Positions 4,029 to 24,618 of a DNA stretch of 32,000 nucleotides are shown piece after piece; the first letter of the stretch is position 1, and every line of letters starts with the position of its first letter. Under the pieces are notes generated by a model that was given only the letters and a program-made list of their open reading frames with translations, ran no database searches and was not told the origin of the DNA. A program made the translations under genes and the position numbers. Source of the DNA: Bacillus subtilis subsp. subtilis str. 168 (lineage in GTDB: Bacteria; Bacillota; Bacilli; Bacillales; Bacillaceae); the NCBI RefSeq assembly GCF_000009045.1, contig NC_000964.3, positions 450,001 through 482,000 of the forward strand, given 5' to 3'.

Positions 4029-4592
4029 TTGAATGCAAAAACAATCACGTTAAAGAAAAAAAGAAAAATCAAAACGATCGTTGTACTCAGTATCATTATG
4101 ATCGCAGCTCTCATTTTTACGATCAGATTGGTGTTTTACAAGCCTTTTCTTATTGAAGGATCATCAATGGCCCCAACGCTTAAAGACTCAGAAAGAATTC
4201 TGGTTGATAAAGCAGTCAAATGGACTGGCGGGTTTCACAGAGGAGACATCATAGTCATTCATGACAAAAAGAGCGGCCGCTCATTTGTCAAACGTTTAAT
4301 CGGTTTGCCTGGTGACAGCATTAAAATGAAAAATGATCAGCTATACATAAATGATAAAAAGGTGGAAGAACCATACTTAAAGGAATATAAACAGGAGGTC
4401 AAAGAGTCGGGTGTAACCTTAACAGGTGACTTCGAAGTTGAGGTTCCTTCCGGTAAATATTTTGTGATGGGAGATAACCGTCTCAATTCACTGGATAGCA
4501 GAAACGGAATGGGCATGCCTTCTGAGGACGATATCATCGGTACTGAATCTCTCGTCTTTTATCCATTCGGTGAGATGAGACAGGCAAAATAA
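4029..4592 (+). CDS. sipU: type I signal peptidase
   Basis: TTG start, 187 aa. N-terminal membrane anchor, catalytic Ser box GSSMAPTL, Lys box VKRLIGLPGD and GDNRLNSLDSR box. Confidence 0.92.
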   Translation: MNAKTITLKKKRKIKTIVVLSIIMIAALIFTIRLVFYKPFLIEGSSMAPTLKDSERILVDKAVKWTGGFHRGDIIVIHDKKSGRSFVKRLIGLPGDSIKMKNDQLYINDKKVEEPYLKEYKQEVKESGVTLTGDFEVEVPSGKYFVMGDNRLNSLDSRNGMGMPSEDDIIGTESLVFYPFGEMRQAK

Positions 4593-4651
4593 AATGCAAT
4601 GCAAAAAGAACATGGAACATGACGGCACCGATAATAAAGCGCCGTGCACGT

Positions 4652-5260
4652 TTAAAAAAATGATGATGAAACGGTGCGGAGCCGGCTTTCCGCCCCGTTT
4701 TTTATGATAGAAAGCGTTTTGAAGAAAAGGGCCCTGTTGAAATAAACAGAATCAGGATTGGCGAAGCCGTGAAGCGCATCGAATTGGTAAATCTCAAGAT
4801 GGGTATGCTGTTTTTCCCGCAGTTTTTTGATAAGAAGCGCTACGTCAAACGACGGCTCATAATTAGGGAAAAACAATAGGACCGGGCAGGCTGGCATGTG
4901 ATGAAGAGAGTCGCGTATCCGGGAACCGTAATAACAAACCGATCCGCTCACCTCAGGCATACTGCTGCATTTCCATGCGATAGTAGCCCCCACGCTGAAT
5001 CCAATCACAAAGATGTGCCGTCCGGCGTTTTGCCTGATCACATTCTGGATGATGGTTTCTCCCGTTTTCAGCCTTTCGTGTTTTGTAAATTGTTCGTATG
5101 CCGTTTTTTCTTCTTTCAGTGTGTAGACTTCATCCTCGCCGAGCAGGTTGGGCGTCAACACATCATATCCAGCCATTTTGATCAGCCGGCCCATCTTTTT
5201 CATATGGCTGTTTACACCATATATTTCGTGTGCGAGAATGACAAGCGGTTTTGGGAACAT
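4652..5260 (-). CDS. yczH: dienelactone hydrolase-family alpha/beta hydrolase
   Basis: Nucleophile elbow GFSVGAT and an alpha/beta-hydrolase layout. The ORF-track start is 5287. I prefer ATG 5260 (MFPKPLVIL...) because AAAGGAGG lies 5 nt upstream of it on the minus strand, whereas 5287 has only a weak AGGA 4 nt upstream. The gene symbol is recalled from B. subtilis gene order, not verified. Confidence 0.8.
   Translation of the reverse strand: MFPKPLVILAHEIYGVNSHMKKMGRLIKMAGYDVLTPNLLGEDEVYTLKEEKTAYEQFTKHERLKTGETIIQNVIRQNAGRHIFVIGFSVGATIAWKCSSMPEVSGSVCYYGSRIRDSLHHMPACPVLLFFPNYEPSFDVALLIKKLREKQHTHLEIYQFDALHGFANPDSVYFNRALFFKTLSIIKNGAESRLRTVSSSFF
4671..4704 (+). terminator. Rho-independent terminator of sipU, embedded in the 3' end of convergent yczH
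   Basis: acggtgcgga (4671-4680) pairs with tccgccccgt (4689-4698) with one mismatch. The loop is gccggctt and the T-run is 4698-4703. Confidence 0.75.
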
Positions 5261-5345: not shown

Positions 5346-5738
5346 ATGAACTCATTATCTTTGCCTCACCGCTATCCATTTTTGTTTATTGATGGCGTGA
5401 CGGATAGCGAGCCCGGCAAACATGCGGCAGCTTATAAGCTGATTAGTGAGAACGACTGGTTTATCACTGATACGCAAACAGAAATGCCGTTTTCACTTGT
5501 GATTGAAGCGCTTGCGCAAACCGCGGCTTTTACAGGAATTACAGATGAGAACAGCTTGGGATTATTGTCTTCGGTGAAGAAAGCGGAAAAGCTGGGAGAA
5601 GCTGTGCCTGGTGACCGGCTTGATCTTACGTTTGAAGTCACGCGCAATCGGCGCGGGTTTGTGTTCGGACATGCCAAGGCATCAGTTGGAGAGCAGCCTG
5701 TTGCTGAAGCTGAAATCGGCATCTATATTGAAAAATGA
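5346..5738 (+). CDS. ycsD: hot-dog fold FabZ/FabA-like (3R)-hydroxyacyl-ACP dehydratase homolog
   Basis: Start placed at ATG 5346, with GGAG at 5335-5338 and 7-nt spacing, giving 130 aa; the ORF track starts at 5322. Contains the LPHRYPFLFID motif typical of FabZ. Confidence 0.88.
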   Translation: MNSLSLPHRYPFLFIDGVTDSEPGKHAAAYKLISENDWFITDTQTEMPFSLVIEALAQTAAFTGITDENSLGLLSSVKKAEKLGEAVPGDRLDLTFEVTRNRRGFVFGHAKASVGEQPVAEAEIGIYIEK

Positions 5739-5744
5739 AAAAAA

Positions 5745-5775
5745 CCCTTCACAACATTTTGTGAGGGGTTCTATT
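5745..5775. terminator. bidirectional Rho-independent terminator shared by ycsD (+) and the small minus-strand ORF
   Basis: cccttcacaa (5745-5754) pairs with ttgtgagggg (5759-5768), including one G-U pair, loop catt. T-rich sequence follows on the + strand and a run of 7 T follows on the minus strand. Confidence 0.8.
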
Positions 5776-5935
5776 TTGTGTCGTAATCCCGTTCGCTTTG
5801 AGAGTTATCTCTTTGCTGGCGTTTGTGTTTTTCATCATTCATATTTTCCTTCAGCTCTTCATTAGGAATCGGATCGGTTAAGTCGTTGTGCTCGGGGTTT
5901 TCATTTGGTTTGTTTTGCTGTTTTTTTTCTGTCAT
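5771..5935 (-). CDS. yczO: small hydrophilic protein, 54 aa (MTEKKQQNKPNENPEHNDLTDPIPNEELKENMNDEKHKRQQRDNSQSERDYDTK)
   Basis: Not in the ORF track because it is under 60 aa. I translated it by hand. The minus strand reads GGTGAGGTGATCAAACATG, so a near-consensus SD sits 7-8 nt before ATG 5935. The stop TAG at 5773-5771 is followed immediately by the bidirectional terminator. The gene symbol is recalled from 168 gene order and is tentative. Confidence 0.6.
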   Translation of the reverse strand: MTEKKQQNKPNENPEHNDLTDPIPNEELKENMNDEKHKRQQRDNSQSERDYDTK

Positions 5936-6067
5936 GTTTGATCACCTCACCGTTTGTTTTCCTCTTATTCATTCTCCTCAAACATAGGAAATCGCTTTTT
6001 TGTCCCGCTGGGTATAATGTATTAGAATAGAGAGAAGCACAACAAAAAGATAAAGAGAGGTACATAT

Positions 6068-6817
6068 ATGTCTGTTCAAAGAGAAGATGTAGATATCAAG
6101 CTGATCGCAATTGATATGGATGGTACACTGCTGAACGACGAGCAGCTGATCTCGGATGAAAACCGCAAAGCCATTCGTGAAGCGGAGGATAAAGGTGTGT
6201 ATGTGGTGATCAGCACGGGCCGGACGCTGATGACGTGCAGGGAGCTGGCGGAATCGCTAAAGCTGTCATCCTTTCTAATCACGGCAAACGGCAGTGAAAT
6301 TTGGGATTCGAATTTTAATTTGGTGGAACGGAAGCTGCTTCATACGGACCATATTCAAATGATGTGGGATTTGCGGAATAAGCACAACACTAATTTCTGG
6401 GCTTCTACGGTGAATAAAGTATGGAGAGGCGAGTTTCCGGAAAACATTACGGATCATGAATGGCTCAAATTCGGCTTTGACATCGAGGATGACGATATCC
6501 GAAACGAAGTGCTTGAGGAGCTGAGAAAAAACAAAGAGCTCGAAATCACAAATTCAAGTCCGACAAACATTGAAGTCAACGCGCTTGGCATCAACAAAGC
6601 TGCAGCCCTTGCCAAGGTTACGGAAAAACTCGGCTTTACAATGGAGAATGTGATGGCGATGGGCGACAGCCTTAATGACATTGCGATGATCAAAGAAGCG
6701 GGTCTTGGCGTCGCAATGGGCAATGCGCAAGACATCGTAAAAGAAACGGCTGATTATATCACGGATACAAATATTGAGGATGGTGTCGCTAAAGCGATTC
6801 GCCATTGGGTACTATAA
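6068..6817 (+). CDS. ycsE: HAD-IIB (Cof-type) sugar-phosphate phosphatase; in B. subtilis a 5-amino-6-(5-phospho-D-ribitylamino)uracil phosphatase
   Basis: HAD motif I DMDGTLL and motif IV GDSLNDIAM. SD AAAGAGAGG lies 7 nt before ATG 6068. 249 aa. Confidence 0.92.
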   Translation: MSVQREDVDIKLIAIDMDGTLLNDEQLISDENRKAIREAEDKGVYVVISTGRTLMTCRELAESLKLSSFLITANGSEIWDSNFNLVERKLLHTDHIQMMWDLRNKHNTNFWASTVNKVWRGEFPENITDHEWLKFGFDIEDDDIRNEVLEELRKNKELEITNSSPTNIEVNALGINKAAALAKVTEKLGFTMENVMAMGDSLNDIAMIKEAGLGVAMGNAQDIVKETADYITDTNIEDGVAKAIRHWVL

Positions 6818-6820
6818 AAA

Positions 6821-6851
6821 AAGAGAGTCCTAAGATGGACTCTCTTTTTTA
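6821..6851 (+). terminator. Rho-independent terminator of ycsE
   Basis: Perfect 10-bp stem: aagagagtcc (6821-6830) pairs with ggactctctt (6837-6846), followed by a T-run to 6850. Confidence 0.85.
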
Positions 6852-6901
6852 GTTTGGCAGGTTTTATTCTGGGACCATGGTAGGTTTTCTGACAAAAGTA
6901 T

Positions 6902-6930
6902 TTCACAAACTGATATGATTCACTTATAAT
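6902..6930 (+). promoter_or_regulatory. candidate SigA promoter of the pxpA(ycsF)-kip operon
   Basis: TTCACA (6902-6907), a 17-nt spacer, then TATAAT (6925-6930). It sits 93 nt upstream of the pxpA start. Confidence 0.6.
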
Positions 6931-6944
6931 GAAATAAAGTTCAA

Positions 6945-6970
6945 AAATTCGGAATAGTCGTTCCGAATTT
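6945..6970. promoter_or_regulatory. perfect 10-bp inverted repeat (candidate operator, possibly for KipR) just downstream of the -10
   Basis: aaattcggaa (6945-6954), spacer tagtcg, ttccgaattt (6961-6970). The repeat starts about 15 nt after the TATAAT. No T-run follows, so it is not a terminator. Confidence 0.45.
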
Positions 6971-7022
6971 CGGGACAATAAATGACATAAAGCATATCGT
7001 TTGCTTTGGCAGGAGGGATTCT

Positions 7023-7796
7023 GTGTTTCAGATTGATTTAAACTGTGATTTAGGAGAAAGCTTCGGAGCCTACAAGATAGGCCTTGACCAAGATATTTTA
7101 GAGTATGTGACATCAGCGAATATCGCATGCGGATTTCATGCAGGAGATCCTAGTGTTATGCGAAAAACCGTCGCGCTTGCAGCAGAAAGAGGCGTGAAAA
7201 TGGGTGCGCATCCGGGCTTGCCGGATTTACTCGGTTTTGGGCGCCGCAATATGGCGATTTCTCCTGAGGAAGCGTATGATCTTGTCGTTTATCAAATTGG
7301 CGCGCTCTCTGGCTTTCTAAAAGCAGAGGGACTTCACATGCAGCACGTCAAGCCGCATGGCGCTTTATACAATATGGCGGCAGTCGATCAAAAACTGTCG
7401 GATGCTATCGCGAAAGCTGTCTATAAGGTTGATCCCGGCCTGATTCTTTTCGGTCTTGCTGAGAGCGAGCTTGTAAAAGCGGGAGAACGGATCGGACTTC
7501 AGACCGCAAATGAAGTGTTCGCCGACAGAACATACCAATCGGACGGCACGCTGACACCGCGCTCCCAGCCGGACGCACTCATTGAAAGTGATGATGCCGC
7601 CGTCACCCAGGTCATCAAAATGGTGAAAGAAGGGGCGGTCAAATCTCAGCAAGGACATGATGTGTCATTAAAAGCAGATACAGTCTGCATTCATGGAGAT
7701 GGAGCCCATGCGCTGACATTTGCGCAAAAAATCAGAAAACAGCTCAAAGCGGCTGGAATTGAAGTGACAGCTATTTCAGAACAGAGGTCAACATAA
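7023..7796 (+). CDS. pxpA: 5-oxoprolinase subunit A (LamB/YcsF family)
   Basis: GTG start with AGGAGGG at 7011-7017. Motifs DLNCDLGE and [10 protein letters not shown]. 257 aa. Confidence 0.92.
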
Positions 7797-7810
7797 AGGA
7801 GGAACAATAG

Positions 7811-9025
7811 ATGGAGCAGCAGAAAAAGACAGCAGGAAAAAAAGCGGGCAGCTGGTCATTGCTGATGGGCGCCGCCTTTTTAATGGCGACATCAGCAATC
7901 GGACCGGGTTTCCTCACCCAAACCGCAACATTCACAAACACACTCGCAGCAAGCTTCGGTTTTGTCATCTTAATCTCTATTATTTTAGATATTTTCGCCC
8001 AAACCAATGTGTGGCGCATCATCGCAGTTTCTGGAAAACGAGGTCAGGAAATTGCGAATATGGTGCTTCCCGGACTGGGGTATTTCATCGCCATTCTCGT
8101 CGTGCTTGGCGGACTAGCTTTTAATATTGGGAATATCGGAGGGGCCGGGCTGGGACTTCAGGTGCTGTTCGGCATTACACCTGAAACAGGCGCTTTAATC
8201 AGTGCCGTTATCGCCATTTTGATTTTTGTCATCAAGGAAGCAGGAAAAGCGATGGACCGTTTTACGCAAATCGCGGGGTTCGTGATGATTATTTTAACGG
8301 TCTACGTTGCGGCGACGACAGCTCCTCCGGTCGGACAGGCAGTCGCAAATACATTCGTCCCGGAACACATCAGCATATTTGCCATTGTCACCCTAGTGGG
8401 CGGAACCGTCGGCGGTTATATCACATTTGCCGGAGGACACCGTTTGCTTGATGCCGGAATTAAAGGAAAGGAATCCATTCCGCAGGTGACAAAGAGCTCG
8501 GTTGTCGGCATTTTAATTACATCTGTCATGCGTATCGCTCTTTTTCTTGCGGTTCTAGGCGTTGTATCGAAAGGCCTGCACATCGATGAAAGCAACCCGG
8601 CGGCTTCTGTCTTCAAGCTGGCTGCTGGAAATGTCGGTTATAAAATTTTCGGATTGATCATGTGGTCTGCGGCGATTACGTCTGTTATTGGAGCAGCCTA
8701 TACATCTGTTTCATTTTTTAAAACCTTTTCTCCAAAAATTGAAAAGAATTCACGCGGTATTATTATCGGATTTATTGTGGTTTCTACGTTAGCTTTTGTC
8801 ACAATCGGCCAGCCTGCGAAGATCCTCGTCCTTGTCGGTTCACTGAACGGCTTAATTCTGCCGATTGCGCTCGGAACGCTGCTTGTTGCCGCCTACAAGA
8901 AAAACATTGTCGGTGATTATAAGCATCCGCTTTGGCTGACAAGCACAGGCGCGCTTGTAGTGATTGTAATGGCAGTTATGGGAATCTACACGTTATGTAC
9001 ACAACTTCCTCAATTGTGGAGCTGA
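7811..9025 (+). CDS. ycsG: NRAMP-fold membrane transporter (atypical; canonical metal-binding residues absent)
   Basis: AAAGGAGG lies 8 nt before ATG 7811. 404 aa with about 11 hydrophobic segments. The TM1 region reads AIGPGFLTQ where NRAMP proteins have DPGN. Confidence 0.9.
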   Translation: MEQQKKTAGKKAGSWSLLMGAAFLMATSAIGPGFLTQTATFTNTLAASFGFVILISIILDIFAQTNVWRIIAVSGKRGQEIANMVLPGLGYFIAILVVLGGLAFNIGNIGGAGLGLQVLFGITPETGALISAVIAILIFVIKEAGKAMDRFTQIAGFVMIILTVYVAATTAPPVGQAVANTFVPEHISIFAIVTLVGGTVGGYITFAGGHRLLDAGIKGKESIPQVTKSSVVGILITSVMRIALFLAVLGVVSKGLHIDESNPAASVFKLAAGNVGYKIFGLIMWSAAITSVIGAAYTSVSFFKTFSPKIEKNSRGIIIGFIVVSTLAFVTIGQPAKILVLVGSLNGLILPIALGTLLVAAYKKNIVGDYKHPLWLTSTGALVVIVMAVMGIYTLCTQLPQLWS

Positions 9026-9048
9026 TATAAGTGGAGCAATTAAACAAA

Positions 9049-9822
9049 ATGGCGCCAAAGGATGTACGCGCCCTGATACGAGAGGGGAAAATAAACGGGC
9101 CGACCGCAGGCATGTCCGGCGGCTACGCCCAAGCGAATCTTGTGGTTTTGAAAAAGGACCTTGCGTTTGATTTTCTGCTGTTTTGCCAGCGAAATCAAAA
9201 GCCCTGCCCCGTGCTGGATGTGACTGAAGCAGGTTCGCCTGTGCCGTCTCTGGCTGCGCCGGATGCTGATATCAGAACGGACTTTCCGAAATACCGTATT
9301 TACAGGCACGGTATCCTAACGGAAGAAGTATCTGATATTACGCCATACTGGGAGGACGATTTTGTCGGCTTTCTGATCGGATGCAGTTTCTCCTTTGAAC
9401 AGGCACTGATCAATAATGGGATAGCTGTCCGGCATATTGATGAGGGGACAAACGTCTCAATGTATAAAACGAATATCGATTGTGTTCCGGCGGGGGCGTT
9501 TCACGGACAGATGGTTGTCAGCATGAGGCCGGTTCCTGAACGGCTGGCTGTACGTGCTGCACAAGTGACCTCGCGTTTTCCGGCTGTGCACGGAGGGCCG
9601 ATCCATATTGGCAATCCGGGAGCAATCGGGATTCGCGATCTCGGGAAACCGGATTTCGGAGATGCCGTTTCCATTCGTGACGGCGAGGTTCCTGTTTTTT
9701 GGGCATGCGGAGTGACCCCGCAAGCCGTGGCTATGAATGTAAAGCCTGAAATGGTCATCACACATGCGCCGGGGCATATGCTCATCACAGATATTCGAGA
9801 CGAGTCGCTTGCGGTGCTGTAG
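9049..9822 (+). CDS. ycsI: DUF1445 / D-glutamate cyclase-family putative hydro-lyase
   Basis: The ORF-track frame starts at GTG 9031. I use ATG 9049 (MAPKDVRALIREG...), giving 257 aa. The start is ambiguous because a GTGGAG SD-like element lies upstream of both candidates. Confidence 0.85.
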   Translation: MAPKDVRALIREGKINGPTAGMSGGYAQANLVVLKKDLAFDFLLFCQRNQKPCPVLDVTEAGSPVPSLAAPDADIRTDFPKYRIYRHGILTEEVSDITPYWEDDFVGFLIGCSFSFEQALINNGIAVRHIDEGTNVSMYKTNIDCVPAGAFHGQMVVSMRPVPERLAVRAAQVTSRFPAVHGGPIHIGNPGAIGIRDLGKPDFGDAVSIRDGEVPVFWACGVTPQAVAMNVKPEMVITHAPGHMLITDIRDESLAVL

Positions 9823-9866
9823 CCTCTCGTCATCCTGATGAACGAGAATTAAAAGAGGTGAGAAAG

Positions 9867-10589
9867 ATGACTGTACGATATCAAATCGAACAGCTCGGTG
9901 ATTCTGCAATGATGATCCGATTCGGAGAAGAAATCAATGAACAGGTCAACGGCATTGTCCATGCAGCGGCCGCTTATATAGAAGAACAGCCATTTCCGGG
10001 ATTCATTGAATGTATCCCGGCTTTTACAAGTCTAACCGTATTTTATGATATGTATGAAGTGTACAAGCATTTGCCTCAAGGCATAAGCTCACCTTTTGAG
10101 AGTGTCAAGCGCGATGTCGAAGAGCGGCTGGCAGAAATAGCCGAAGACTATGAGGTCAACCGCCGTATTGTAGAAATTCCCGTTTGCTATGGCGGTGAAT
10201 TCGGTCCGGATTTAGAAGAGGTGGCGAAGATCAATCAACTGTCACCGGAGGAAGTAATCGACATTCATACAAACGGTGAATATGTGGTGTATATGCTTGG
10301 CTTCGCGCCCGGTTTTCCTTTTCTAGGCGGGATGTCAAAACGCATTGCAGCTCCGAGAAAATCATCGCCAAGACCGTCGATTCCCGCAGGTTCGGTCGGT
10401 ATTGCGGGATTGCAGACAGGCGTTTATCCGATTTCAACGCCGGGCGGCTGGCAGCTGATCGGCAAAACGCCGCTGGCTCTTTTCCGGCCGCAGGAAAACC
10501 CGCCGACATTGCTGCGGGCGGGAGATATTGTGAAATTCGTTCGCATCTCAGAAAAAGACTATCACGCCTATAAGGAGGAGTCCAATTGA
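9867..10589 (+). CDS. kipI: KinA inhibitor KipI / 5-oxoprolinase subunit B (allophanate hydrolase subunit-1-like, cyclophilin-like domain)
   Basis: Start placed at ATG 9867, with AGAGGTGA at 9854-9861 upstream, giving 240 aa. The ORF-track start GTG 9858 lies inside that SD. Confidence 0.92.
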
Positions 10590-10591
10590 GC

Positions 10592-11599
10592 ATGAAAGTA
10601 TTAAAGCCCGGACTGCTCACAACGGTTCAGGATATAGGCAGAACGGGTTACCAAAAATACGGCGTTCTGGCCAGCGGCGCTATGGACACGGTTTCACTGC
10701 GCATTGCCAATCTGTTGATAGGAAACGGCGAAAATGAAGCAGGTCTCGAAATAACGATGATGGGGCCCGGTCCGTCGTTTCATTTTTCAAAACAGACACT
10801 GATTGCTGTGACAGGGGCGGACTTCACGCTGCGTATTAATGACGAGGAAGCGCCTTTATGGAAGCCTGTGCTCATCAAGGAAAACAGCACGGTCAGCTTT
10901 GGCCCCTGCAAACTCGGCAGCCGTGCTTATTTGGCGGCAGCTGGCGGCATTGAGGTGCCTGCCGTCATGGAAAGTAAAAGCACATACGTCAGAGGAAGCA
11001 TTGGCGGACTTCATGGCAGAGCGCTTCAAAAAGAAGATGAACTGAACATTGGAGAGATGTCAGCTCTTTCGCAAACCATCCTTTCTCGCTTAAGTTCGCA
11101 GCTTGGAAAACAGGGATTTGCAGCACCGAAGTGGTCAGTCAGCCGCGGCAGATTTCTGCCATTGAAGAAGAATCCCGTCATTCGGGTGCTGGAAGGAAAG
11201 CAATTTGCCTTTTTCACAGAAGAATCAAAAACGCGTTTTTATGAAGAAGCATTTCGTGTCACGCCGCAGTCCGACCGTATGGGCTACAGGCTCAAAGGAG
11301 AACCGCTCGAACTGAAGGCCCCGCTTGAGATGGTGTCGGAAGCGGTTTCATTCGGAACAGTTCAGGTGCCGCCTGACGGCAACCCGATTATCCTGCTTGC
11401 AGACCGGCAGACGACTGGCGGCTATCCGAGGATCGCGCACATCATATCCGCTGATCTTCCGATTGTTTCCCAAATCATGCCGGGCGAGCACGTTCAGTTT
11501 GAGCCTGTGTCCCTCCAGGAGGCAGAAGCGCTTGCGGTAGAACGGGAACAGCATATAAAAGAACTGAAAACGAGAATGAAGATGGAATGGCTGACATAG
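10592..11599 (+). CDS. kipA: KipI antagonist KipA / 5-oxoprolinase subunit C (allophanate hydrolase subunit-2-like)
   Basis: ATG 10592 lies 2 nt after the kipI stop TGA (10587-10589). AAGGAGGAG at 10572-10580. 335 aa. An in-frame TTG at 10586 is an alternative start. Confidence 0.92.
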
Positions 11600-11614
11600 C
11601 AAAGGGGATGAATG

Positions 11615-12367
11615 ATGCAGAATAAAAATAAAACCGTAGTCAAATCTATGGCGCTGCTTAATTTGTTTTTGCATAAACCAAGCCTAACCTTAAGTGAACT
11701 GGTGTCGCTGACGGGAATGCCGAAGACCTCTGTTCACCGGATGGTCAGCTCCTTGGAGGAAATGGGGTTCCTCAGTCGGGATGCGTCCGGCGCTTATTCG
11801 CTGGGATTGGTGTTTTTGGAATTCGGACAGCTTGTCGCTGACAGGCTGGATATCAGAAAAATAGCGAAACCGGTGATGGAAGAGCTGTGCCGGGAAGTGG
11901 ATGAGGCCGTGCAGTTGATCATGAGGGACGGCAATGAAGCGATATACGTTGAGAAAATAGAAGGGACACAGACTGTGCGGCTGTATACGGCGATCGGCAG
12001 GCGTTCCCCCCTATACGCGGGAGCGTGCGCCAGAAGCATTCTGTCCTTTCTTCCCCGTGAAGAAATCGAAGCATACATCAAACAAACCGAGCTCATTTCG
12101 ATTGGCTCCGGAACGATTACCGATCCCGAAAAACTGCTTCAGGAGATTGATGCCTCTGTGCAAAATGGCTATACTGTCAGCTATTCAGAGCTCGAAAACT
12201 ATACGGCGGCGATCGGCGCCCCGATCTTTAACCATGAGCGCCAGGTGGCAGCCGGCATTAGCATTGCAGGCTTTGAAGCGAGATTTACAGAAGACAGGCT
12301 GCCCTATTTAACAGAAAAGGTGAAGGACGCCGCTTTACAGATTTCAAGAAAAATAGGATATACATAA
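11615..12367 (+). CDS. kipR: IclR-family transcriptional regulator of the kip operon
   Basis: N-terminal winged HTH (LTLSELVSLTGMPKTSVHRMVSSLEE) plus an IclR effector domain. Tandem ATGs at 11612 and 11615; the AAAGGGGA SD spacing favours 11615, giving 250 aa. Confidence 0.92.
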   Translation: MQNKNKTVVKSMALLNLFLHKPSLTLSELVSLTGMPKTSVHRMVSSLEEMGFLSRDASGAYSLGLVFLEFGQLVADRLDIRKIAKPVMEELCREVDEAVQLIMRDGNEAIYVEKIEGTQTVRLYTAIGRRSPLYAGACARSILSFLPREEIEAYIKQTELISIGSGTITDPEKLLQEIDASVQNGYTVSYSELENYTAAIGAPIFNHERQVAAGISIAGFEARFTEDRLPYLTEKVKDAALQISRKIGYT

Positions 12368-12430
12368 GTAGCCAATCTTTTCTCTGCTGCGTACATTAAC
12401 GTATCGACGTTCAAGAGTGGAGGAAAGAAC

Positions 12431-13072
12431 ATGGTGCTTCGATATACAGCTCTGGGCGATTCCTTGACGACAGGGAGAGGCTCCGGGCTGTTTTCACCCG
12501 GCTTCGTCCAGCGTTTTGGGGACATGATGGAAGCTGACTTGAAAACAAGAACGGCAATAAACATATTTGCCAGATCAGGTCTGAATACAGAAGAGATTTT
12601 GGGACTCCTGTCATATCCCTATGTGCAAAAATGTATTCGAGATGCTGATATGATAACGATCACAGGGTGCGGAAACGATCTCATCGATTCGGTCTTAGCC
12701 TACCAAACCTCTAAGGATGAAACGATTTTCAGCCGTGTATCCGCCCATTGCCATGAGAATTTTGAAAAGATGATTGCCAAAGTCGCCGAGATTAAAGGAG
12801 AAAATCCTTCCCCGTACGCCATTCGTGTGTTCAACTTATACAATCCGTTTCCCGAAATTGATATCGCCGGCAAATGGATCACTTCGTTTAATTCACATTT
12901 AGAAACACTTGCATCAGCACCCCATGTCAAAATCGCGGATGCCTATAGCATCTTCAAAGGCAAAGAACAGGAATATCTGTCCTTTGACGGTGTCCATCCG
13001 AACAGCAAAGGCTATCAAGCGATGGCTGAAGCCGTTCACAAGCTAGGCTATAAAGAATTATCAGTTTCATAG
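12431..13072 (+). CDS. lipC: SGNH/GDSL-family lipase (spore germination/coat phospholipase)
   Basis: GDSL block LGDSLTTG near the N-terminus, GCGNDL block and DGVHPN block. SD GTGGAGGAAAG upstream. 213 aa. Confidence 0.92.
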
Positions 13073-13103
13073 AAAACGCGCCTCATGACAGGCGCGTTTT
13101 TTA
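13073..13103 (+). terminator. Rho-independent terminator ending the pxpA-lipC operon
   Basis: aaaacgcgcc (13073-13082) pairs with ggcgcgtttt (13091-13100), loop tcatgaca, T-run to 13102. Confidence 0.88.
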
Positions 13104-13244
13104 TGTGTGATCGAAATATTAAAAGAAACTTAAAATTCTCTGTCTTCTGTTCTACAGACAAACAAAGTGCGCTAGAATAATGGAGGGCGTAGGCAAATAT
13201 AGCCATAACGTTCAATATTTCGTATATAAGGAAGGATGGTCCTT

Positions 13245-13490
13245 TTGTTTCGGATTTTTAAAATGTCTTTTGCGGTTATCATTATTATACTGGCGCTTAT
13301 TGCTTTTAACTATACGGAACACACCTCTGTAATCCAATCGGTCATGCTCGTCTTTCTTGGTGCGGTCATGTTTATGCAGGGGCTTGAAGAGCGCAAAAAA
13401 GAAAATGACGGCTCAGGCGCTTTTAATATTTATACCGCCGTTTTTGTATGGTCTGTCTCCCTTATCGGTTTTACACTTCATATTATATAA
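13245..13490 (+). CDS. yczI: small two-TM membrane protein (DUF3953-like)
   Basis: The ORF is open from ATG 13236, but the AAGGAAGG SD abuts that ATG. The in-frame TTG at 13245 has about 8-nt spacing and gives 81 aa. Two hydrophobic helices are separated by EERKKENDG. Confidence 0.7.
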   Translation: MFRIFKMSFAVIIIILALIAFNYTEHTSVIQSVMLVFLGAVMFMQGLEERKKENDGSGAFNIYTAVFVWSVSLIGFTLHII

Positions 13491-13495
13491 ATCTA

Positions 13496-13783
13496 TTACA
13501 CATCCTGAAAATGCTCGACCGTCGGGAACGGGGTATAGAACCGATGAAGCAAGGCTTTCCACTCTTGATACTCTGAAGAACCGCGAAAGCCTTCCGTATG
13601 GTCCTCAAGTGTTTCCCACTCCACAAGAAGCAGATATTTATGCGTTTCCTCCATGCATTTTGATAACGAGTGAGTGATATAGCCCTTCATGCCGGAAATA
13701 ATCGGCGCAGCTTGCCGGAATGCATCCTCAAACTCTTGTTCAAGGCCTTCTTTAATGTGAAGCATTGCTGCCTCTCTGACCAT
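13496..13783 (-). CDS. yczJ: ABM-domain (antibiotic biosynthesis monooxygenase-like) small protein
   Basis: Start placed at ATG 13783 (MVREAAMLHIKEG...), preceded on the minus strand by AGAAAGAAGGGA, giving 95 aa. The ORF-track extension to 13843 has no SD. Ferredoxin-like ABM pattern (LLLVEWETLEDH...F). Confidence 0.8.
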   Translation of the reverse strand: MVREAAMLHIKEGLEQEFEDAFRQAAPIISGMKGYITHSLSKCMEETHKYLLLVEWETLEDHTEGFRGSSEYQEWKALLHRFYTPFPTVEHFQDV

Positions 13784-13933
13784 GCTATCCCTTCTTTCTG
13801 TCTTTTCAAATAGTCTACAGCAAACGATAGGAGATTTCTGCAAAATCGGTGAACTTTTCCTTCATTTTCAAAAAAATCTTGCACGCACCAATTCAATTAA
13901 GAGAAAATAACAAGTGGAAGGCAGGGGAAAGTC

Positions 13934-15940
13934 ATGTTAAAAAAGTGTATTCTACTAGTATTTCTATGCGTCGGATTGATTGGGTTAATCGGATGCTCCA
14001 AAACAGATTCACCAGAGGATCGCATGGAAGCATTCGTGAAACAGTGGAACGATCAGCAATTCGATGACATGTATCAAAGCCTGACTAAAGATGTCAAAAA
14101 AGAAATCTCCAAAAAAGATTTCGTCAACAGGTATAAAGCCATCTATGAGCAGGCCGGCGTAAAAAATTTGAAAGTCACTGCGGGAGAAGTAGATAAGGAC
14201 GATCAAGACAACAAGACGATGAAACATATCCCGTATAAAGTCAGCATGAACACAAATGCCGGCAAAGTCAGCTTCAAGAATACTGCTGTGCTGAAATTAG
14301 AAAAAACAGATGACGAGGAGTCATGGAATATAGATTGGGACCCATCGTTTATTTTCAAGCAGCTGGCTGACGACAAAACCGTGCAAATTATGAGCATTGA
14401 ACCGAAACGAGGCCAAATTTACGATAAAAATGGAAAAGGCTTAGCCGTCAATACAGATGTTCCGGAAATTGGAATTGTTCCCGGAGAGCTTGGCGATAAA
14501 AAAGAGAAAGTCATAAAAGAACTCGCCAAAAAACTTGATTTGACTGAAGACGACATCAAGAAAAAGCTGGATCAAGGCTGGGTAAAAGACGATTCGTTTG
14601 TGCCGCTCAAAAAGGTCAAGCCTGACCAGGAGAAATTAGTTTCTGAAGCGACGTCATTACAAGGCGTAACAAGAACGAATGTCAGCTCCCGCTACTATCC
14701 GTATGGCGAAAAGACAGCCCATTTGACAGGCTATGTCCGCGCCATTACAGCGGAAGAACTGAAGAAAAAGAAAGAAGGAACGTACAGCGATACGTCTAAC
14801 ATCGGTATCGCCGGACTTGAAAATGTGTATGAAGACAAGCTAAGAGGCACAACTGGCTGGAAAATCTACGTGCCGCAAACCGGGGAAGTCATCGCTGAAA
14901 AGAAAGCAAAGGACGGCGAGGATCTTCACCTCACAATTGATATCAAAACGCAAATGAAGCTGTATGATGAACTGAAGGATGACAGCGGGGCGGCAGTCGC
15001 GCTGCAGCCGAAGACAGGCGAAACACTCGCCCTTGTCAGCGCGCCTTCCTACGATCCAAACGGATTTATTTTCGGCTGGAGCGATAAGGAATGGAAAAAG
15101 CTAAACAAAGATAAAAACAATCCGTTTTCAGCGAAATTCAATAAGACATACGCGCCAGGTTCTACCATTAAACCGATTGCGGCTGCTATTGGAATCAAAA
15201 ACGGCACCCTTAAAGCCGATGAGAAGAAAACAATCAAAGGCAAGGAGTGGCAAAAAGATTCAAGCTGGGGCGGCTATTCAGTGACACGTGTGTCTGAGAG
15301 ACTTCAACAAGTCGATTTGGAAAACGCCCTTATTACGTCAGACAATATTTATTTTGCCCAGAATGCGCTTGATATGGGAGCGGACACCTTTACAAAAGGC
15401 TTGAAGACATTCGGTTTTTCAGAGGACGTTCCGTACGAATTCCCGATCCAGAAATCGTCTATTGCAAATGACAAGCTTGATTCAGACATTTTGCTTGCGG
15501 ATACAGGCTACGGACAAGGGCAAATGCAAATGTCTCCGCTTCACTTGGCAACTGCTTACACGCCATTTGTTGACAATGGAGACCTTGTCAAACCGACGCT
15601 GATCAAAAAAGATTCACAAACAGCTGATGTTTGGCACAAGCAAGTGGTCACGAAGGAAGGAGCGGCAGACATTACAAAAGGTCTGAAAGGCGTTGTGGAA
15701 GATGAGCGCGGATCAGCGTATCAGCCTGTCGTGAAAGGAATCACAGTGGCTGGAAAAACAGGAACAGCCGAGCTGAAAACATCAAAAGATGATAAAGACG
15801 GCACGGAAAATGGCTGGTTTGTCGGCTACGATTACGAAAACAAAGACCTGCTTGTCGCCATGATGATCCAAAATGTGCAGGACCGCGGCGGCAGCCACTA
15901 TGTCGTTGAGAAAGCGAAAAAGCAATTTCAATCGAATTAA
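13934..15940 (+). CDS. pbpC: class B penicillin-binding protein 3 (lipoprotein; MecA/PBP2a-like N-terminal domain plus transpeptidase)
   Basis: Lipobox LIGLIGC at the N-terminus. Transpeptidase motifs STIK (SxxK), SDN (SxN) and KTGTA (KTG). 668 aa. Confidence 0.95.
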   Translation: MLKKCILLVFLCVGLIGLIGCSKTDSPEDRMEAFVKQWNDQQFDDMYQSLTKDVKKEISKKDFVNRYKAIYEQAGVKNLKVTAGEVDKDDQDNKTMKHIPYKVSMNTNAGKVSFKNTAVLKLEKTDDEESWNIDWDPSFIFKQLADDKTVQIMSIEPKRGQIYDKNGKGLAVNTDVPEIGIVPGELGDKKEKVIKELAKKLDLTEDDIKKKLDQGWVKDDSFVPLKKVKPDQEKLVSEATSLQGVTRTNVSSRYYPYGEKTAHLTGYVRAITAEELKKKKEGTYSDTSNIGIAGLENVYEDKLRGTTGWKIYVPQTGEVIAEKKAKDGEDLHLTIDIKTQMKLYDELKDDSGAAVALQPKTGETLALVSAPSYDPNGFIFGWSDKEWKKLNKDKNNPFSAKFNKTYAPGSTIKPIAAAIGIKNGTLKADEKKTIKGKEWQKDSSWGGYSVTRVSERLQQVDLENALITSDNIYFAQNALDMGADTFTKGLKTFGFSEDVPYEFPIQKSSIANDKLDSDILLADTGYGQGQMQMSPLHLATAYTPFVDNGDLVKPTLIKKDSQTADVWHKQVVTKEGAADITKGLKGVVEDERGSAYQPVVKGITVAGKTGTAELKTSKDDKDGTENGWFVGYDYENKDLLVAMMIQNVQDRGGSHYVVEKAKKQFQSN

Positions 15941-24225: not shown

Positions 24226-24618
24226 AAAATTTGTGTTTTCAGGGGCGATATGTTATTATGAATAGCTAGTAAGAAAAATAAGCAAATAAAAAAGAAAGTA
24301 AACTTCTTTTTTCTGTTTTGAGAGAGAAGCTTACCGCTTCCCAAGCAGCATAACCAGCTGCCCTTATTCTTTTCCTTCATAACAAATCGCCCCTAACGAT
24401 GAGATGGAAAAAAGACTTTTTTGTTTTACAATTCACACCGGCGCGGCTTCGGAGCCGCAGTGACGATTGAGAGGTAGGGCTTTCGTTGTCTTGTGTTCAA
24501 GAAATTTCCATGGTGTTTACTTTCCAGAATGATTCTTCGGAACAATGCTTTATGAATCTAACCCGCCTGACTTGGCGGATGATATAATCTTTATTTGCGT
24601 ATAGAAAAGAATAAGACA

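Follow-up and report, generated by a model that had tools for sequence, protein, structure and literature searches.

What holds together genes as different as three subunits of a 5-oxoprolinase, a transporter, a DUF1445 protein, an IclR-family repressor, and a spore lipase? The question is raised by the pxpA(ycsF)-ycsG-ycsI-pxpB(kipI)-pxpC(kipA)-kipR-lipC cluster of Bacillus subtilis subsp. subtilis str. 168, seven codirectional and tightly packed open reading frames (ORFs) on the plus strand at positions 6902 to 13103 of the 32,000-nucleotide stretch analyzed here (the window; NC_000964.3, positions 450,001 to 482,000), in whose coordinates all positions are given. An earlier note, made from the sequence of the window alone, had read the cluster as one transcription unit that, through 5-oxoproline or a related lactam, couples nitrogen and damage metabolism to the decision to sporulate. 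We conclude that the cluster is a 5-oxoproline salvage module to which a local regulator and the gene for a spore lipase have been added, and that it is no new sporulation-sensing unit. Its parts very probably form three layers of different evolutionary age, namely, a conserved module, KipR, and lipC. The operon and its central points are already in print and are textbook knowledge for this locus (PMC10448178; bioRxiv 10.1101/2024.05.01.592088; PMC2743287). Our additions are a predicted KipR operator, an observation on the ligand residues of YcsG, and the genomic context of ycsI across phyla.

The age of the different parts is best seen from a survey of ycsI loci. Diverse YcsI homologues were aligned and one genome per GTDB species was scanned, which gave 80 loci, flanked on either side by at most 10 kb of DNA, from Bacilli, Clostridia, Negativicutes, Chloroflexota, Cyanobacteria, Planctomycetes, Methylomirabilota (NC10), Rokubacteria, Synergistales, delta-proteobacteria, and Psychrobacter. 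Neighbors were counted by tblastn with the window proteins within 10 kb of ycsI. On this scale, kipI and kipA were found in 43 of the 80 loci, pxpA in 41, all three pxp genes in 40, and a ycsG-like gene in 27. KipR-like genes were confined to Bacillales (9 loci), and lipC was present in none of these 80 distant loci. Thus, ycsG and ycsI have an old and broad linkage to pxpABC, one that includes the non-spore-forming Psychrobacter and Megasphaera. This pattern indicates that the logic of the cluster is metabolic and that its connections to sporulation (KipI-KinA and lipC) are lineage specific. The core is a transporter-PxpABC-DUF1445 module, to which KipR (in Bacillales) and lipC are lineage-specific additions.

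The enzymatic heart of the module is well defined. All three PxpABC subunits are present (PF03746, PF02682, and PF02626, with E values of 1e-76 to 1e-106), with scores of 355.8 bits for the PxpB equivalog TIGR00370 (cutoff, 145.6) and 385.7 bits for the PxpA subfamily NF003814 (cutoff, 226). The cutoff of the PxpA equivalog NF003813 was missed (389.9 versus 392), as was that of the PxpC equivalog NF045499 (262.9 versus 500), for which the broader TIGR00724 was passed (308.9 versus 230.2). Despite these missed cutoffs, the window proteins are the experimentally characterized B. subtilis proteins summarized in bioRxiv 10.1101/2024.05.01.592088. According to that summary, KipI, KipA, and YcsF form the 5-oxoprolinase PxpABC, which converts 5-oxo-L-proline to L-glutamate in an ATP-dependent reaction, and KipI inhibits KinA, an effect counteracted by KipA. 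Mutants of B. subtilis in kipI and kipA do not use 5-oxoproline and are poisoned by it. The first and oldest layer would be a widely conserved salvage of the glutamate lactam, composed of PxpABC, the YcsG transporter, and an accessory activity of YcsI.

Two characterized operons share much of this core. In Clostridioides difficile, kipOTIA (pxpAGBC) is a single operon for PxpA, PxpB, PxpC, and a YcsG-like transporter and serves in the detoxification and use of 5-oxoproline; unlike the B. subtilis cluster, it lacks ycsI, kipR, and lipC, and deletion of kip has no effect on sporulation (bioRxiv 10.1101/2024.05.01.592088). In Corynebacterium glutamicum, pxpTABC likewise combines a YcsG-homologous transporter with PxpABC under a dedicated local repressor and supports growth on 5-oxoproline, but it contains neither a DUF1445 gene nor a lipase. 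The C. glutamicum repressor, PxpR, is of the GntR type, is divergently transcribed, and binds 5-oxoproline, whereas KipR is of the IclR type and is cotranscribed with the genes it controls (PMC13274462).

At the other end of the cluster, lipC is a separately driven neighbor that has a terminator in common with the operon and lies outside its metabolic logic. In the mother-cell arrays of Eichenberger et al. (PMC517825 supplement), ycsK (lipC) had a sigK+/sigK- ratio of 11.8, whereas the ratios of the genes upstream were 0.94 (kipR), 0.70 (kipI/kipA), 0.66 (ycsI), and 0.95 (ycsG). LipC has been described as a late coat protein dependent on sigma-K, GerE, and SafA (PMC12311139). The literature describes an operon ycsFGI-kipIAR-ycsK (PMC2743287), and the seven-gene order including lipC recurs in B. 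velezensis, B. atrophaeus, B. paralicheniformis, and B. halotolerans. As the third and youngest layer, lipC would have been added in the B. subtilis group alone and would owe its real expression, late in the mother cell, to a sigma-K/GerE-dependent promoter of its own, the downstream terminator being merely common.

Where that promoter lies is less certain. The published candidate for a sigma-K promoter of lipC, TTTCAAGA-N12-ACATAAGTA, was located in the window, where it overlaps the kipR stop codon (12365-12367). It is an awkward point for a separate lipC promoter at this site that, in a five-species alignment of the junction, the -10 element ACATAAGTA is kept only in the closest relative, B. 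halotolerans, and this poor conservation leaves the exact lipC start site uncertain. We therefore rejected ACATAAGTA as a firm -10 element and retain it as published only, flagging instead the invariant block GCGTACATTAACGTATC, 20 nt beyond it in the kipR-lipC spacer, which perhaps acts as a promoter or regulator element in late sporulation. The spacer also folds into a hairpin (12376-12428; -16.9 kcal/mol, z = -2.5) in which UCUUUUCUCUGCU pairs with the Shine-Dalgarno region of lipC. The hairpin has no U tract and no terminator was found before lipC, so vegetative read-through into the gene is plausible. We also considered the possibility that the hairpin hides the lipC ribosome-binding site on read-through transcripts, but this was unsupported, as several pairs are broken across the five aligned species and the covariation term is positive.

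Much of the earlier note's description of the transcription unit was borne out. The gene identities it had assigned agree with Pfam and NCBIfam assignments and with exact matches to B. subtilis proteins. It had described seven genes with gaps of 2 to 63 nt, and the gaps measured here are, in order, 14, 5, 35 (or 44), -4 (or 2), 12, and 63 nt, the alternatives depending on the choice of start codon. It had also placed a single strong terminator at the end of lipC. This terminator, a stem followed by a U tract, was overlooked by a simple consensus scan; it folds at -23.6 kcal/mol (z = -6.8), and none of 200 shuffled sequences folded as well. The promoter-like site that it had put ahead of pxpA was confirmed as well, being the top sigma-70-like match of the 15 in positions 5500 to 14500. 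Because the number of such matches is at chance level (15 observed versus 12.4 +/- 3.2 expected), the credibility of this promoter, PpxpA, comes from its location in the 205-nt gap after the ycsE terminator (-18.9 kcal/mol, z = -5.6) and from its -10 hexamer, which is invariant in an alignment of five Bacillus species; its position also agrees with the published PpxpA deletion map (PMC10448178). What did not hold was the claim that PpxpA is the only promoter, given that lipC alone is sigK dependent in the published arrays and has a candidate internal promoter. By scanning and folding, we found no convincing internal terminator; terminator-like matches in the region were at chance (13 versus 8.7 +/- 2.7 expected), and the internal ones were weak. 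With promoter- and terminator-like matches both at chance level, the scan cannot exclude internal sites. A second good sigma-70-like match, inside ycsG (8739-8766; TTGAAA-16-TATTAT, 10/12), is perhaps meaningless given this background.

KipR has an N-terminal HTH_IclR domain (PF09339, 53 bits) and a C-terminal IclR effector domain (PF01614, 209 bits) and is the known repressor of the operon (PMC10448178, PMC2743287). Directly 3' of the -10 hexamer and the inferred start site of PpxpA lies a TTCGGAA/TTCCGAA palindrome that, judging from the sequence and its conservation, is likely the KipR operator. A perfect 10-nt inverted repeat, AAATTCGGAA-N6-TTCCGAATTT, spans 26 bp (6945-6970) around the core TTCGGAA-N6-TTCCGAA (6948-6967) and is followed by an imperfect third half-site. 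The pattern TTCGGAA-N4-8-TTCCGAA has one copy in the window and none in 100 shuffles. Across five Bacillus species, the spacer varies but the arms do not, as expected of a palindrome bound by a protein, and the position of the palindrome fits the published loss of KipR repression on deletion of the region downstream of +1 (PMC10448178).

In the distant loci, the exact palindrome was not found outside the B. subtilis group. Similar paired half-sites follow a -10-like element upstream of the cluster in KipR-encoding loci of Terrilactibacillus, Priestia, Domibacillus, B. badius, Psychrobacillus, and Brevibacillus. Since a looser half-site pattern is common genome-wide, we restricted its counts to the 200 bp upstream of cluster genes, where it occurred in 10 of 13 KipR-encoding loci versus 3 of 35 KipR-less loci (Fisher P of ~1e-5). 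This comparison is weakened by the post hoc definition of the motif and by the phylogenetic relatedness of the loci, so that the test overstates their independence. The second layer would be the Bacillales-specific KipR, whose gene closes the module and which would bind the predicted palindrome downstream of a TnrA-activated sigma-A promoter. Such an arrangement would have the module induced under nitrogen limitation and autoregulated, and the question of where KipR binds now has a specific proposed answer in the 26-bp palindrome.

The TnrA input is well documented. Earlier work reported two TnrA boxes and chromatin immunoprecipitation peaks ahead of ycsF (PMC4475385). The PpxpA region also has overlapping cre and TnrA sites, and the operon is subject to repression by KipR and activation by TnrA, with CcpA, AhrC, and MntR also binding or controlling it (PMC10448178). 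In the window, the TnrA-box-like site TGGTAGGTTTTCTGACA is centered about 51 nt before the inferred start of transcription, and the block AGGTTTTCT-ACAA at this site is invariant across the five Bacillus species. A direct repeat, TGGCAGGTTTT / TGGTAGGTTTT (6855-6865 and 6878-6888, 23 nt apart), lies upstream of the -35 element and perhaps represents the pair of ycsF boxes described in PMC4475385. In the whole window, matches to TGTNAN7TNACA with at most one mismatch numbered 21 versus 10.5 +/- 3.1 expected, a count reached by no shuffle, and a perfect TnrA box is located within an ORF (2942-2958).

The transporter gene ycsG brings in the question of the substrate. YcsG belongs to the same Pfam fold family as the canonical NRAMP/MntH transporters (PF01566, Nramp fold, 82.2 bits versus a cutoff of 29.8), but it scores 44.9 bits with the MntH model, whose cutoff is 430. 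Aligned over about 375 residues with a divalent-metal NRAMP of solved structure, YcsG has GPGF instead of DPGN in transmembrane helix 1 and GGTVGGY instead of AVVMPH in helix 6, and the canonical metal ligands Asp, Asn, and Met plus a conserved His are thereby replaced by Gly, Phe, Gly, and Tyr. The replacements are invariant in 28 of 30 aligned homologues, from Bacilli to Psychrobacter; the other two are divergent NRAMP-like proteins with other residues. C. glutamicum cannot grow on 5-oxoproline without PxpT, a transporter with 50% identity to YcsG, and the pxpT deletion was complemented in trans (PMC13274462). The lost metal ligands, the low MntH score, and the C. glutamicum genetics together favor 5-oxoproline as the substrate of YcsG.

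The DUF1445 protein YcsI matches PF07286 (233.8 bits versus a cutoff of 25) and the "putative hydro-lyase" family NF003969 (433.9 versus 324), and its family is unusually conserved, with 58 to 70% identity across phyla and about 60 to 70% from Bacillus to Chloroflexota and Psychrobacter. Two structural-genomics structures of the family, 2PIF and 3DB9, carry no functional annotation, and searching the PDB with a profile built from the YcsI alignment returned only these two unannotated UPF0317 structures and chance-level matches. An AlphaFold2 model from a 14-sequence alignment had a mean predicted local distance difference test score (pLDDT) of 42 and was set aside as too poor for a fold search. 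In 27 of the 80 loci (neighbor-ORF clustering; 30 by tblastn), ycsI adjoins a gene for a protein of about 285 amino acids belonging to PF14336 (DUF4392), a gene absent from the window and from all Bacillales loci examined. DUF4392 and ycsG never occur together near ycsI (contingency counts of 0, 27, 27, and 26), an exclusivity that may simply reflect phylogeny, Bacilli versus the rest. In an operon of a clostridial metagenome-assembled genome (L079:6444-12680; also in loci L051, L053, L075, and L080), the order is class IV aminotransferase, DUF4392, pxpB, pxpC, ycsI, pxpA, and alanine racemase, with gaps of 0 to 10 nt, so that three enzymes of D-amino-acid type are joined to the 5-oxoprolinase genes. 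These neighbors tie DUF1445 to PxpABC and to D-amino-acid metabolism and hint at D-glutamate chemistry, and we infer from this context that YcsI is a conserved accessory enzyme of the module.

One studied relative is mammalian. D-Glutamate cyclase (DGLUCY, C14orf159), studied as the mouse fusion protein, converts D-glutamate to 5-oxo-D-proline and contains a DUF1445 domain homologous to YcsI; it is a DUF1445-DUF4392 fusion, whereas B. subtilis YcsI consists of DUF1445 alone (PMC5339696). Split bacterial homologues of the human enzyme are listed in one survey, and we found no assay of a bacterial member of the DUF1445 family in the literature. The adjacency of DUF1445 and DUF4392 in 27 of 80 loci mirrors the mammalian fusion. 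D-Glutamate is abundant in the Bacillus cell wall and in poly-gamma-glutamate. Tentatively, YcsI might add a D-branch to the module, with D-glutamate, or the 5-oxo-D-proline made from it, passing through the DUF1445 enzyme to join the 5-oxoproline handled by PxpABC, although on present evidence this is more doubtful than probable. DUF4392 would also take part in such a branch in other phyla, and the order of the reactions is complicated by the thermodynamics of ring opening. If the branch exists, the operon salvages both enantiomers of the glutamate lactam.

The place of both genes in the module has to be weighed against other readings. For YcsG, the substrate is genuinely disputed, with manganese phenotypes on one side and 5-oxoproline genetics on the other. 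Ogura et al. renamed the protein MntG because of manganese accumulation and synthetic lethality with mntH mntA (PMC10448178); YcsG would then be a true Mn2+ importer that supplies the enzymes with metal or ties manganese homeostasis to nitrogen metabolism, and it would be no 5-oxoproline carrier. The experiments behind this name tell against our assignment, as overproduction of YcsG from Pspac-ycsG raises cellular manganese and Pspac-ycsI does not, the mntH mntA ycsG triple mutant is unobtainable unless ycsG is supplied ectopically, and MntR binds PpxpA, a manganese-responsive promoter (PMC10448178). Hard to reconcile with metal import are the clade-wide replacement of the metal-binding residues (DPGN to GPGF and MPH to GGY), an MntH score far under the cutoff, the requirement for PxpT in C. 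glutamicum, and the colocalization of ycsG-like genes with pxpABC. On balance, we regard a true manganese importer as unlikely; YcsG most likely carries 5-oxoproline and not a metal, a conclusion that leaves the manganese phenotypes unexplained. For ycsI, the alternative is that the gene is a passenger, functionally unconnected with the 5-oxoprolinase. PxpABC works without ycsI, the pxp clusters of Escherichia coli, C. glutamicum, and C. difficile do not contain it, and in 36 of the 80 loci ycsI stands more than 10 kb from any pxp gene found. The 43 loci with pxpB/pxpC are spread over at least five phyla, however, and ycsI often stands between pxpC and pxpA with gaps of 0 to 10 nt (e.g., in L079 and L073), while by our own estimate the chance of finding a given single-copy cluster in a 20-kb window is well under 1%. 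We therefore give very little credence to the passenger reading and keep YcsI as a part of the module.

The reading of the earlier note, in which all seven genes including lipC are one unit and 5-oxoproline or a related lactam, acting through PxpABC and KipI-KipA, signals nitrogen status or damage to KinA and sporulation, has real points of departure. The opposing actions of KipI and KipA on KinA are summarized in the literature, TnrA makes the operon respond to the nitrogen source, and kipR and lipC are separated by no terminator. The note was right about the two published roles of KipI and KipA (KinA control and PxpB/PxpC), although these are textbook knowledge for the locus. Against this reading stand the sigma-K-dependent expression of lipC and its linkage in the B. 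subtilis group only. A metabolite-to-sporulation hypothesis is not needed to account for the comparative evidence, and two results, the core cluster in non-spore-formers and the unaffected sporulation of the C. difficile kip deletion, make it less likely as an explanation of the arrangement; we consider the reading of the note quite improbable. Inhibition of KinA by KipI would be a lineage-specific second job of PxpB and not the reason for the clustering. If the action of KipI on KinA were nevertheless metabolite dependent, a point on which the sequence is neutral, both Kip roles would be explained together. The note had also held that neither role explains ycsG, ycsI, and lipC. This is true only in part. 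There are two competing experimental assignments for ycsG, the linkage to pxpABC in 43 of 80 loci places ycsI in the conserved module, and lipC is a sigma-K/GerE-driven neighbor. Its proposed survey of co-occurrence came out in favor of a linkage of ycsG and ycsI to pxpABC that extends beyond close relatives.

Some of the surveyed loci show variations around the pxp genes. Genes for a biotin carboxylase and a biotin carboxyl carrier adjoin pxpB/pxpC/pxpA in 10 loci, including those of Psychrobacter, Megasphaera, and some Bacillales (L028:10861-12786, L044:10952-12871, L014:13339-15124, L001, L002, L009, L016, L035, L055, and L071). They recall the architecture of urea carboxylase, an analogy that suggests a biotin-dependent variant of the lactam-opening enzyme. 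A Sporomusa locus (L010) has two pxpB (kipI) paralogues (4409-5149 and 8172-8918), less than 4 kb apart, upstream of pxpC-ycsI-pxpA.

The features of the cluster are collected in Table 1. The locus is the published kip operon, ycsF-ycsG-ycsI-kipI-kipA-kipR-ycsK, now pxpA-mntG-ycsI-pxpB-pxpC-kipR-lipC, from which it does not differ in gene order, promoter region, or regulators (PMC10448178, PMC2743287). The four window proteins tested by exact-sequence look-up were identical to YcsI, YcsG, KipR, and LipC of B. subtilis subsp. subtilis, and the neighboring genes agree with the map of B. subtilis and its relatives. The 5' neighbor is the gene for the HAD phosphatase YcsE; on the 3' side lie genes for DUF3953, ABM, PBP, and aldo-keto reductase proteins. 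Inspection of start codons makes ATG at 9867 the likely start of kipI, where the Shine-Dalgarno sequence was also considered, and ATG at 10592 that of kipA. A megablast search gave no plasmid match to the region, and Rfam gave no RNA family in the 5' leader or the rest of 6902-13103. Elsewhere in the window, Rfam matched the small RNA BsrC on the minus strand (24413-24499; 79.3 bits versus a gathering score of 38).

Table 1. Features of the pxpA-lipC cluster and its flanks, in window coordinates
Feature	Position	Strand	Remarks
Intrinsic terminator of upstream gene ycsE, 5' boundary of the unit	6817-6850	+	Perfect 14-nt inverted repeat, then T run
TnrA-box-like site TGGTAGGTTTTCTGACA	6878-6894	+	One mismatch to TGTNAN7TNACA
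Sigma-A promoter PpxpA, TTCACA-17-TATAAT	6902-6930	+	11/12 match
Candidate KipR operator	6945-6975	+	Half-sites TTCGGAA 6948-6954, TTCCGAA 6961-6967, imperfect TTCGGGA 6969-6975
pxpA (ycsF), 5-oxoprolinase subunit A	7023-7796	+	LamB/YcsF PF03746, 354 bits; NCBIfam NF003814
ycsG (mntG, PxpT-like), NRAMP-fold transporter without canonical metal ligands	7811-9025	+	PF01566, 82.2 bits
ycsI, DUF1445/UPF0317 "putative hydro-lyase" (Pfam name D-Glu_cyclase)	9031-9822	+	PF07286; NF003969
kipI (pxpB)	9858-10589	+	TIGR00370 (PxpB; CT_C_D)
kipA (pxpC)	10586-11599	+	PF02626 (CT_A_B), 312 bits; TIGR00724
kipR, IclR-family repressor of the operon	11612-12367	+	HTH_IclR and IclR_C domains; exact KipR match
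Published candidate sigma-K promoter of lipC, TTTCAAGA-N12-ACATAAGTA	12342-12370	+	"Possible promoter by visual inspection" (PMC517825 supplement)
Conserved block GCGTACATTAACGTATC in kipR-lipC spacer	12389-12405	+	GTACAT-TA...TA invariant in five Bacillus species, flanks diverge
lipC (ycsK), GDSL spore-coat lipase	12431-13072	+	PF00657, PF13472; exact LipC match
Intrinsic terminator common to operon and lipC	13073-13103	+	16-bp stem, then U run

As this is a known model operon, its confirmation adds little. The missing metal ligands give a clear prediction for the question of 5-oxoproline versus manganese as the substrate of YcsG, and with the details given here the questions about KipR, YcsG, and YcsI become more testable.

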